From contig CAVTUQ010000019.1 of NCBI GenBank assembly GCA_963737905.1, positions 96,001-160,000 of the forward strand: 64,000 nucleotides of DNA, in the 5' to 3' direction. Every line of letters starts with the position of its first letter. The first letter of the stretch is position 1. The stretch is from an uncultured delta proteobacterium (lineage in GTDB: Bacteria; Desulfobacterota; Binatia; UBA9968). Shown in pieces: positions 1 through 2,832 of the stretch. The position numbers and the translations under genes were made by a program. The notes beneath the pieces were generated by a model. That model was not told the DNA's origin. It did no database searches and worked only from the letters and a program-made list of their open reading frames with translations.

Positions 1-1280
1 AGACGCTTCTCTATCTCCCAGCCGAACAGAGTTGGGTACCGATCCATATCTCCATAACCCAGCCGGTTCTGTGCTTTGGGGCTTTTTGATTTTGAGTTCT
101 AAAGAAATTTTCTCTCTTCCTGGGAAGGCACAGGATGAAGAAACTTCATGAAGAATAAGATCATCACTCTCGCGCTTGGCGCTTTGCTTTTGGCATTTTG
201 GTCCTTCGCTCAGGCGCAGCAGGCGAAGAAAATCCCTCTGATAGGGTATCTATCGCCGTTCGATCCAGTTGCTGAGTCCACCCGTTCCGAGGCAATTCGG
301 CTAGCTCTGCGCGAGTTTGGCTACATAGAAGGACAGAACATCGCCATCGAGTACCGATATTCGGAGGGTAAGGTCAATCGGTTCCCTGAGCTTGCGGCCG
401 AGCTGGTGCGTCTCAAGGTTGATATCATCTTGGTATCAGGAGGGGACAGGCTGATCCTGGCGGCCAAGAATGCGACCAAGACGATTCCCATCGTTATGAC
501 AGGCGGTGGGCTCGATCCTGTTGAGGCAGGCCTGGTTGAAAGCCTTGCCCGTCCCGGCGGCAACGTCACCGGCATTACAAACCTTACCGGAGAACTAGGC
601 GGTAAGCGGCTGGAGCTGCTCAAAGAAGCCGTTCCCAAACTTGCCCGTGTTGCGGTTCTCTACGATCCGACCGGGCCGTCCAATGTACGCGAGGTGAAAG
701 AGGTTCTCCCAGTCGCGGCGCGTGCGCTGCGGTTGACTATTCAGCCTTGGGAGGTACGGGCTGCGGACGGTTTCGAGAAGGTATTCGCTGCGCTAAACAA
801 GCAGCGTCCGGATGGACTCTACGTGTCCGGAGGCCCGCTAATGAATGCTAACCAAAAAAGGATCGCGGACTTTGCGTTAAAGAGCCGATTACCGGTGATG
901 TACCAGAGGAGAGAAGCTGTAGATGCCGGTGGGCTCATGTCCTACGGGGCGCATAGCAGGCAGGTGTCAAGAGGCACAGACATTCCTGTGAGAATATTTC
1001 TTATTCCCTTTTTCAACCCTCGCGGGAATGTGTGATATCCTGATTTGACGCGCCCCTGTTTTCAATCAGCTGGTGTCGGATCCCGCAGGTCCGCACCAGT
1101 CACCCATCAGGTTCAAGGCTTTGGGAGCTGTCCTCTACGGACAGCGATCTCCCGCCCCTGGCAATCTTGATTGCCCCAGAAAACTATCGGTACCACGCCG
1201 CGTCCAAGGTTATAGGATCACAGATCCACTGGCTCTCCCTGTTCGGGGGCCAACCCTATGGTGGCTCACGGCATGGGTAT

Positions 1281-1400
1281 AAAAAAAGATCACAGCACCA
1301 CCGAGTTGTCGATATGTAAAGGGACGGGACAGCGGCCAAATCGGACCATGTGGTTCTAAGCCAACCCCGTGTCAGGCTCACTATCCCATCCCAGCCGTTA
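1281..1400 (-). ncRNA. Putative bridge/seek RNA of the IS1111-type element
   Basis: Lies just 3' of the transposase stop. A 12-bp stem (1381-1392 with 1321-1332, two G-U pairs) encloses ACGGGG (1365-1370) and GGUCCG (1342-1347), which match opposite strands of the reconstructed target. Donor-like UAUCG and UGCUGUG follow, then U7 (1281-1287). Boundaries are estimates. Confidence 0.65.
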
Positions 1401-1410
1401 AAGTGCTCTC

Positions 1411-2429
1411 TCAGGCAAACGCCTTGGTGATATCAAACGCCACCTGATCTTTGATAATGTAGTAGCAAGCCCGGGAGAGCTTGTGCGCCACTGCTTTGAT
1501 GGCCACAATCGCGTGGCTCTTGGATTTCTTTTTCTGATAGAAGCTTTTGATTCTCGAATTAAAGCGGATCGCAAAGTTGGCGGCCTCCACAAACGCCCAG
1601 GCCAAGTACTTGTTGCCATTCTTGGTATTGCCGGTTCCTTTACGTTTGCCGTTGCTGATTTTCTGACTCCCCACACAGCGACAATACGACGCGTAATTTC
1701 CGACACTGGCAAATCGCTCGATCTCTCCGGTCTCCAGCATGATCGTGAGCGCCAGGATCGGCCCGATCCCAGGTACCGTCTTTAGTAACCTTGAACTCAG
1801 GGCGCAGCTTGACTCGCTCCTGAACGGTTTTCTCCAGGATCTCGATCTGGGCATCAGCGCTGTTCATGACCGCCAGATTGGCTTTGAGCGCTAGGACCAG
1901 ATCCGGGTCGGGCAAGACTCCATCGACGCGTTGGATATTGAGCGCTTTGATGTACTTGGCGCTGATCTATGTTCCCCGTGGTGCGGCTTATCAGACTCTG
2001 GATACTGAGAAGGTTGGCCGTCCTCTGATGCACGAGCTGCCCCCGCTTGCGCAACAAGTCCCGCACCGCTCGCTCTTCTTTCGGATAAATGTAGCCCTCG
2101 GGTAAAACCCCCAGCCGCAGCAGATGCGCTAGCCATCGCGCGTCACTGTGGTCATCGGTATACTTCAGCCCATTGTATTGCTGGATTGCCGCGGTGTTCG
2201 CAAGATGAAGTCGGTAGCCCTTCTCCATCAGTCCATCGACCAGCCAGTACCAGTTATAGGTAGATTCCACCACGATACCCTCAAGCGATCTGCGATAGCT
2301 CGACAGTTGCTGCGCGATCAACGAAAGATCGTTCGGCAAGCGCTTTTGATACACCACTTGATCTTGCTCGTTGATCACCACCGTCACGTTATTGGTGGAA
2401 TGCAAGTCAATTGCTCCGTACAATTTCAT
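1411..2429 (-). CDS. IS110-family transposase/recombinase (DEDD RuvC-like + C-terminal serine domain), two +1 frameshifts near 1970 and 1790
   Basis: Motifs GAIDLHS, VVESTYNWYWL, KYTDDHSDARWLA, then TVPGIG, YCRCVGSQKISNGK and AIKAVAHKLSRA across three overlapping frames. Confidence 0.9.
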
Positions 2430-2832
2430 CTCGGTTCCTCCTTTGAGTGGGTGTGGGGTTAGCTTACCCGCACCTTACTGCCTCTCGAAGGAGCCTGCTA
2501 GATGATTATCGGACCTCGCGGCCAGCTACCGGCGCGTCGCATATTACGTGGACAGAATCCTGAAGGGAGCCAAGCCCGCCGACCTGCCGGTCGAGCAACC
2601 GACGAAGTTCGAGTTCGTGATCAATCTCAAGACGGCGAAGCAAATCGGGCTGACGATTCCGCCGAATGTGCTGGCGCGAGCGGACAGAGTGATTCGATGA
2701 CCAAACAATCGAAAATCCAAAATGAGAACGCGGGAGCACAGGGATGAGTAGATGCACGTAAGTGATGAGCGGTAAGAAGTAAGGCGACGAAATTTAGGAC
2801 TCGGCTTGCCGGCTTTGGTTTAGGAGGTAGAA

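Follow-up and report, generated by a model that had tools for sequence, protein, structure and literature searches.

The window analysed here, a stretch of 64,000 nucleotides from a contig of an uncultured delta proteobacterium, carries in its first 2.7 kb an ABC transporter substrate-binding gene (PF04392) that is broken at 950/951 and resumes at 2512. An insertion sequence occupies the gap, having inserted at TCCTACGGGG-CG-GACCTC within the gene (Table 1). Eight uninterrupted homologues from related genomes show the empty site as ...ATGTCCTAC GGGG CG GACCTCG... or near variants of it, and one of them (L086) is identical to the window flank at 30 out of 30 positions before the insertion site. 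Together with the CG present at both junctions, these homologues confirm the target tcctACGGGG-CG-GACCtc that the original prediction had reconstructed.

In the 6.7-Mb assembly from which the window comes, positions 952 to 2509 are the sole full copy of the element. The only other trace of it there is a 105-bp fragment (L002; G000:C9:23376-23480) that is 94% identical to window positions 2172 to 2276, in the N-terminal part of the transposase. Compared to the 338-amino-acid proteins of the relatives, the transposase frame is split by two extra bases, one near 1970 and one at about 1791-1792, and soil RNA-library contigs that match the region have no extra bases at 1970 and 1791. The right end, GCCTGCTATG, is 3 nt shorter than the family end, GCCTGCTAATGGG, and a 12-nt stretch that differs from that of the relatives carries a run of seven U residues (U7). 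The element is a decayed copy that is unable to move by itself: two frameshifts interrupt its transposase, 3 nt are missing from its right end, and one stem in the linker of the RNA region has been destroyed.

The 12-mer target has five perfect unoccupied copies in the same genome (G000), while the reversed control has one. Four of the five are found at the corresponding position of paralogous ABC substrate-binding genes. The guide is thus directed at a codon stretch (YGADL) that is conserved in a large gene family; by comparison, other IS1111 elements target REP or attC repeats.

Table 1. Features of the element and of its RNA region in the window, and unoccupied targets elsewhere in genome G000
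Feature	Position	Strand	Description
CG core copy, right-end junction (transposase orientation)	950-951	.	Host flank ...CCTACGGGG stops at 949
Insertion sequence body	952-2509	-	1,558 nt plus one CG; IS110 family, IS1111 layout
Right end GCCUGCUAUG (transposase orientation)	952-961	-	Holds subterminal inverted repeat GCCTGCTA
Multi-branched 3' domain	1045-1192	-	Helix 1184-1179/1063-1058, hairpin 1175-1160, helix 1158-1154/1119-1115, hairpin 1098-1071
Junction strand GAUGGG-UG-AC, candidate donor-side guide	1099-1108	-	Mirrors right end, core, and right-flank bases 1-2
Second loop module	1193-1276	-	Closing stem 1276-1267/1202-1193, GAGCC, UGG...CCA hairpin, UUGGAC; architecture as in the first module
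Linker with the proposed second module of the original prediction	1281-1320	-	U7 stretch in place of TTCGATGGTACG of the relatives
Predicted target-binding (first) module	1321-1392	-	Outer stem 1392-1379/1334-1321 plus 1377-1375/1337-1335 closing an internal loop
3' guide UGGUC-CG-AU	1340-1348	-	Same sense as left flank, core, and left-end bases 1-2; predicted to pair with the bottom strand
Central hairpin UGG-CUUAGAA-CCA	1351-1363	-	Between both guides
5' guide ACACGGGGU	1364-1372	-	ACGGGG predicted to pair with right-flank top strand CCCCGT; U1364 opposite core G
Transposase pseudogene	1411-2429	-	PF01548 and PF02371 halves; two extra bases compared with the intact L003, L004, and L005 genes
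Left end ATAATCATC, then subterminal inverted repeat TAGCAGGC	2493-2509	-	
CG core copy, left-end junction	2510-2511	.	Host gene restarts with GACCTCG at 2512
Unoccupied 12-mer targets, G000	C7:402023-402034; C27:21757-21768; C29:43268-43279; C29:90794-90805; C32:62010-62021		

Family placement and relatives

Relatives were collected by a scan of one genome per species, which gave 371 stretches encoding a relative of the C-terminal half of the transposase; the best 80 were kept, and the counts given below over 81 sources and the loci derived from them draw on these best 80 of 371. The compared loci are kin and not independent of one another. Among the best 80 of 371, the closest relatives (L003, L004, and L005) are ∼89 to 92% identical to the window over the whole element and encode an intact protein of 338 amino acids, that of L004 being 95% identical to the window over the C-terminal part.

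As the mark of the IS110 family we took an N-terminal DEDD/RuvC-like and a C-terminal Tnp domain in one protein of ∼315 to 450 amino acids that reaches the curated score. Both domains are found in the window, PF01548 with 51.7 bits (in 1854-2429) and PF02371 with 70.4 bits (in 1411-1854). The intact L004 protein scores 183.5 bits against the NCBIfam model NF033542, "IS110 family RNA-guided transposase," for which the cut-off is 140. The two pieces from the window reach 70.6 and 97.3 bits, each below that cut-off, because the gene is split by frameshifts. The domains of the window and the score of the intact L004 protein place the element among the IS110 family RNA-guided transposases.

The IS1111 group is characterized by subterminal inverted repeats of 7 to 17 bp, as described in parts of PMC11208160, and by a longer noncoding region downstream of a transposase of 330 to 350 amino acids, as described in parts of PMC11187229. 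In our element, TAGCAGGC begins 10 nt inside the left end and GCCTGCTA ends 2 nt inside the right end (5 nt inside in the relatives), and these subterminal repeats covary between loci, as in CCGGC/GCCGG and CCTTC/GAAGG. The noncoding region measures 459 nt downstream and 80 nt upstream of the transposase, which in the relatives has 338 amino acids. An IS110/IS1111-type element with a guide RNA downstream of its transposase, as originally proposed, is thus borne out by the domains, by this layout, and by the conserved module described below.

The nearest named annotation that we encountered is the ISGsu4 family, at 53.6% identity, and a literature search on ISGsu4 returned nothing related. The ISGsu4-like IS1111 subfamily may be undescribed, unless it or its predicted RNA already appears in the supplementary tables of PMC11208160 and PMC11187229.

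Residues 186 to 306 of the L004 protein (L004:163-1176), in its C-terminal domain, show a weak similarity to NF052498, "TIGR-Tas system RNA-guided endonuclease" (E value of 1.1e-6; 28.8 bits against a cut-off of 100). A TTGAC motif is kept 15 to 20 nt inside the right end in nearly all loci (TTGACA at 966-971 on the minus strand of the window), and the left end (2501-2509) begins with ATAAT. Joining the ends in a circle could give a putative -35/-10 pair, which we liken to the junction promoter known for IS1111-type elements from parts of PMC11187229.

A conserved stem-closed loop downstream of the transposase

The original prediction named five strings on the minus strand, ACGGGG (1370-1365), GGUCCG (1347-1342), UAUCG (1314-1310), UGCUGUG (1297-1291), and U7 (1287-1281), and all five are present there. 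The stem said to enclose the first two is likewise found in the fold, with 1392-1379 pairing with 1334-1321. The window alone folds with a z-score of -1.84, 9 of 200 shuffles folding at least as well, and it contains an excess of chance six-mers; judging the guides from the window alone was therefore uninformative. A scan of positions 800 to 2700 against Rfam 15 at an E value of ≤10 gave no matching family; the sole hit, the S-element, had 17.9 bits where the gathering score is 47 and is irrelevant to this RNA.

Ten sequences were used to build a covariance model, which detected the module in 51 of the 81 sources; a second model, made from the sequences so detected, raised this to 77 of 81. 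The module always lies immediately downstream of the transposase stop codon and in the orientation of the transposase. At least some of the 4 sources without the module at an E value of ≤0.01, and of the 8 without the junction strand described below, are loci cut by a contig end. In the 77-row alignment, 91.7% of the cells are paired, compared to 34.8 to 47.2% when the partners are slid by one to three columns, all 17 pairs of the outer stem have changed on both sides, and the covariation score was reached by none of 500 shuffles. The alignments used for these pair counts were fitted to the structure of the model, which favors that structure; the stem is nonetheless secure, given the controls with slid partners and how many types of pair occur. 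A conserved secondary structure in the noncoding end, one of the marks of a bridge RNA or seekRNA, is therefore present. Between the two guides, the conserved pairing is UGG/CCA and not the GGUU/AACC hairpin initially read from the window, which we rejected because the L077/L050 clade cannot form it.

The loop strands follow the flanks of each element

The scaffold of the module is nearly invariant, and its most variable columns are the two loop strands, exactly at ACGGGG and GGUCCG. We placed the element ends at each locus by conserved motifs, using a fuzzy motif search, and then compared the loops with the flanks. Some rows were dropped by hand, and loci cut by a contig end provided no flank. 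For the first flank comparison, the rows dropped were four right-end calls (L019, L022, L025, and L037) and one left-end call (L037), in which the motif was not at an end-like place; for the later permutation tests, they were left ends that departed from the family motif at more than 3 of 12 positions, right ends that departed from AATGGG at more than 2 of 6 positions, and the right-end calls of L019 and L075.

Over the six bases beside the core, the 3' guide has 4.26 of 6 identities with its own left flank and 2.13 with the left flanks of other loci (54 nonredundant loci), and the total over these 54 loci was reached by none of 5,000 permutations. In 55 of 56 loci, its core is the same dinucleotide as that at the left junction. 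Beyond the core, the guide extends by 2 nt, which equal bases 1 and 2 of the left end in 58 of 60 loci (AT in 46 and AA in 12) and bases 1 and 2 of the right flank in 0 of 60. The 5' guide, compared with its own right flank, scores 6.75 of 9 versus 5.16 (59 nonredundant loci; 0 of 5,000 permutations), with a longest exact run of 5.92 versus 3.77 in the 59 nonredundant loci. This right-guide test is weakened by the fact that many loci share the target type AGRCC-TG-ACCCC. At loci with targets unlike this common one, the right side matches at 10/10 positions in L050 and at 9/10 in both L077 and L052, and on the left side guide and flank match at 10/10 positions in L049. Positions 6 to 10 of the 5' guide taken alone give 2.11 versus 1.84, a value reached by 480 of 10,000 permutations.

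The 5' guide requires two registers, the window, L010, and L006 being without the A after the core. Loci that fit poorly are L006 and L075, with 3/8 left identities, and L009, with 1 to 2 of 10 right identities. At L009:3815-3850, a partial tandem self-copy (GCTAATGGGTG CTAATAGGTG ACCC) comes after the right end, so that the true junction is ambiguous; the right-guide score of this locus is poor.

Both sides thus follow their own flanks, with 0/5,000 permutations each, which supports the claim that the two 6-mers are target guides on opposite strands. The check suggested with that claim, a covariance model together with guide-target covariation across homologues, yields a conserved module with loop strands that are complementary to both target strands and covary with the target. 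Relatives with different targets, which would have spoken against the original prediction had their loops been the same, have different loops that match their own flanks, in favor of the prediction. The CG core named in that prediction holds for the copy in the window; across the subfamily the core is YG, mostly TG.

The right-junction dinucleotide differs from the guide core in 8 of 60 loci (L050, L052, L059, L035, L046, L078, and others). The differing junctions mostly have CG on the right and TG on the left and in the guide, only the G being always shared. This suggests a tolerance of a mismatch at the Y, with a heteroduplex whose resolution differs between the left and right junctions.

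Taken by itself, the 459-nt noncoding region of the window shares 16 six-mers with the 28-bp empty site, versus 6.4 in shuffles. Among these hits is an 8-nt run, GCGGACCT, at 1094-1087. This run on the minus strand (GCGGACCU; 1087-1094) is complementary to the left half of the target and the core and is longer than either true guide. It lies in the conserved hairpin 1098-1071, which is unrelated to the target and the same in relatives with other targets, and it illustrates how single-copy matches can mislead. The two target 6-mers are lifted well above chance by the relatives and not by the window alone.

The linker between the modules

UAUCG and UGCUGUG had been interpreted as a second module that reads the circle junction, followed by U7 as a terminator. 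In the relatives, AUAUCGA pairs with a downstream UCGAU (TCGAT in the DNA), and both strands are changed in L007 and L008; UAUCG is a strand of this stem, and UGCUGUG ignores the right end, so the interpretation does not hold. Circle-junction 5-mers number 12 in the noncoding region, where 21.4 are expected from shuffles, and no column of the stretch 1281-1320 follows the element ends. U7 is missing from all nine aligned relatives, which read TTCGATGGTACG in its place; since only the copy in the window has it, it is not a terminator of the family. Its replacement of TTCGATGGTACG in the window means that the stem partner of AUAUCGA has been lost. Two soil RNA libraries have contigs whose match to the window reaches 1277 and which then carry the sequence of the relatives and not a U run.

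The element at L030 is otherwise typical and carries an insertion of ∼200 nt in the linker between both modules. That such an insertion is tolerated argues against the linker as a functional guide region.

Downstream modules and a candidate junction strand

Conservation continues for ∼230 nt beyond the region of the original prediction, to about 1045. The RNA had been described as compact, with ∼120 nt; the conserved structured region instead comprises ∼350 nt, from 1392 to ∼1045, and includes a second loop module and a multi-branched 3' domain. The closing stem of the second module has compensatory changes in 8 of its 10 pairs. Its loops were tried as guides and rejected: the 3' loop gave a weak signal as a left-flank guide (2.64 versus 2.05; 4 of 10,000 permutations), which may reflect kinship, and the 5' loop as a right-flank guide gave 5.37 versus 5.27 (2,893 of 10,000 permutations). 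No readable match of the second-module loops to any flank or end was found.

The helices of the multi-branched domain covary across the relatives. Unpaired between two of these covarying helices, the junction strand is found in 73 of the 81 sources. In 60 of 64 loci, its last 3 nt are identical to those of the right end, with GAG, GGC, and GGA among the variants so matched. Its 2-nt extension is the same as bases 1 and 2 of the right flank in 52 of 60 loci (AC in 43, TC in 5, GC in 3, and TT in 1) and bases 1 and 2 of the left end in 0 of 55; the AA, TC, GC, and TT variants may each represent one or two events, so that the junction covariation may amount to perhaps four to eight independent changes. 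In the window, where the right end is shortened, the match between the junction strand and the right end of the element has been lost.

Mutual-information, offset, and sliding scans across the RNA region revealed no guide for the left end past bases 1 and 2, and the mutual-information scans showed no diagonal. The offset scans had two top candidates. One was the junction strand itself, with 6.4 of 9 pairs counting G-U, and it was rejected for having no covariation with left-end variants; the other, GAYAGUUUU, was rejected as one strand of the helix 1184-1179/1063-1058. Against the left end, the strand of the multi-loop that joins the last hairpin to the closing helix scored 2.94 versus 2.71 in shuffles and the 3' loop of the second module gave 3.28 versus 3.48, and the second-module loops slid along both ends gave nothing above 0.56 identity. 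On the donor side, the right end and core are mirrored by 1108-1099 with covariation, and the left end is mirrored only through its first two bases.

Comparison with known systems

The IS1111 seekRNAs of ISEc11, ISPa11, ISKpn4, and ISPst6, as presented by Siddiquee et al. (2024) in parts of PMC11187229, share with our element a noncoding region downstream of a transposase of ∼340 amino acids, subterminal inverted repeats, and a stem-closed RNA of 70 to 100 nt with two short stretches, one for each target strand. In both, close relatives are naturally reprogrammed, with the stem kept and the loops changed, and the flanks of the donor equal the target. The guide that pairs with the top strand lies 5' of the bottom-strand guide, as it does here if the top strand is that of the transposase orientation. 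The first module, with 72 nt, resembles the short seekRNA of 70 to 100 nt that is sufficient for ISEc11 according to the same parts of that paper. Our element differs in belonging to another subfamily, for which ISGsu4 is the nearest named family (53.6%), and is described here from sequence; the right-end strand far downstream and the 2-nt cross-junction extensions are features absent from sections 6, 8, 9, 10, 13, and 14 of PMC11187229.

The bridge RNA of IS621, as described by Durrant et al. (2024) and Hiraizumi et al. (2024, 2026) in parts of PMC11208160, PMC11208158, and PMC13626964, likewise serves an RNA-guided DEDD/Tnp recombinase. In parts of the first two of these, the strands of an internal loop read opposite strands flanking a 2-nt core, as here. 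In the IS621 sections covered, a dinucleotide adjacent to the guide matches the noncognate partner, the counterparts here being bases 1 and 2 of the left end and of the right flank, and a second module of similar architecture is also present. In contrast to IS621 as described there, the RNA of our element lies 3' and not 5' of the gene, the order of the guides is reversed, and the core is YG and not CT. Moreover, the cross-junction dinucleotides are on the guides that would pair with the bottom strand and not beside the top-strand-pairing RTG and RDG, and the candidate donor-side strand sits in a multi-loop, with no left-end guide readable. The handshake guides of IS621 pair with noncognate DNA after strand exchange (parts of PMC11208158 and PMC13626964), and our two putative junction-reading strands would, by analogy, resemble them. 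For IS1111 orthologues, donor-binding bases have been placed in a multi-loop (parts of PMC11208160).

Discussion

We consider it highly probable that positions 952 to 2509 are a dead IS1111-type copy whose downstream region encodes a bridge or seek RNA, with 1392-1321 as the target-binding loop and with 1108-1099 reading the right junction. The 5' loop strand, ACACGGGGU, would pair with CCCCGT on the top strand in the right half of the target. The partner of the 3' loop strand, UGGUC-CG-AU, would be the bottom strand across the left half of the target and the CG core, with up to two further bases of the guide reaching into the left end of the element itself. Jointly, the two strands would specify GGTC-CG-CCCCGT, the occupied site in the ABC substrate-binding gene. 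Some 230 nt downstream, the unpaired GAUGGG-UG-AC (1108-1099) would read from the right end through the core into the first two right-flank bases. Two strands of the same sense would then each read across one junction of the integrated element. The existence of the transcript and its binding by the transposase are presumed here; the soil RNA-library contigs (runs X15 to X18, with small shares of 0.08 to 0.12), which cover parts of the region in relatives and which we used for the sequence that relatives have in place of U7, for the uninterrupted site, and for the frame without the extra bases, do not prove transcription and reveal neither a start nor an end of a transcript. The junction strand may act as RNA and may play a handshake role, with few independent changes behind the counts.

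Two explanations keep the RNA shorter. The model originally proposed, an RNA of ∼120 nt (1400-1281) with a target module, a donor module made of UAUCG and UGCUGUG, and a U7 terminator, gains from the presence of every string that it names and from the 82-nt RNA that suffices in ISEc11 (parts of PMC11187229). We regard it as very improbable as a whole, as U7 is absent from the nine aligned relatives and is replaced by TTCGATGGTACG in the contigs of two soil RNA libraries too, the supposed donor guide pairs within a stem that changed on both strands in L007 and L008, circle-junction 5-mers are fewer than expected, no column of the stretch tracks the ends, and conservation runs on for ∼230 nt. 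It is less far-fetched, though still unlikely in our view, that the first module alone is the functional seekRNA, with ∼72 to 90 nt, the rest serving processing, stability, or regulation and the right-end-like strand being a DNA-level feature such as an internal end-like or protein-binding site. Parts of PMC11187229 report that an 82-nt seekRNA of ISEc11 supported transposition better than a 154-nt form, and in our data the second-module loops track no flank or end, no left-end partner strand was found, and CUUGAUCCUG before the junction strand resembles TTGACCTG of the right end minus the inverted repeat. What speaks against a DNA site is that the extension of the junction strand tracks host sequence beyond the element (in 52 of 60 loci, with four variant classes), which an internal site has no obvious reason to do, and that the strand is unpaired in a covarying multi-loop, like the donor-binding bases that parts of PMC11208160 describe for IS1111 orthologues.

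It could also be argued that the stem-loop is an ordinary 3' mRNA structure or terminator and that loop and flank match through a shared ancestral target or by chance. The matches in the window span just 6 plus 6 nt, the noncoding region contains 16 six-mer hits, and a similar target is common to many relatives, all of which would agree with such an origin. Yet the loops vary on a fixed scaffold and follow the flanks across clades with unlike targets, GTCCGCTGTC, GTTGCAATA, and ATCGAGTCTG match over 9 to 10 nt, none of the 5,000 permutations reached the observed values on either side, and the transposase family is an RNA-guided one, which leaves this explanation with an almost negligible probability.

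RNA-guided IS110/IS1111 recombinases are under development as programmable DNA-insertion tools, and the IS1111 branch is much less understood than IS621. The system described here is of a known kind, and the window adds no new principle. The gain lies in 77 related elements from many phyla (out of the best 80 of 371) in which target guides, core, and cross-junction dinucleotides can be read, and in a candidate donor-side strand in the multi-loop, so that the recognition by IS1111 elements of their own ends becomes testable with a handful of constructs. For the host genome, the element accounts for the disrupted ABC substrate-binding gene.

Beyond the reading of the right junction by 1108-1099, we tentatively raise the possibility, to be held with some reserve, that the RNA of ISGsu4-like IS1111 elements reads not a target and a donor duplex but two junctions, left flank-core-left end and right end-core-right flank, the left end being left to the protein and the subterminal repeats. 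If this is true, the handshake would be built differently from that of IS621, which could explain why IS1111 donors need target-like flanks, and the subfamily would yield rules for designing a second type of programmable recombinase RNA, one of independent evolutionary origin.
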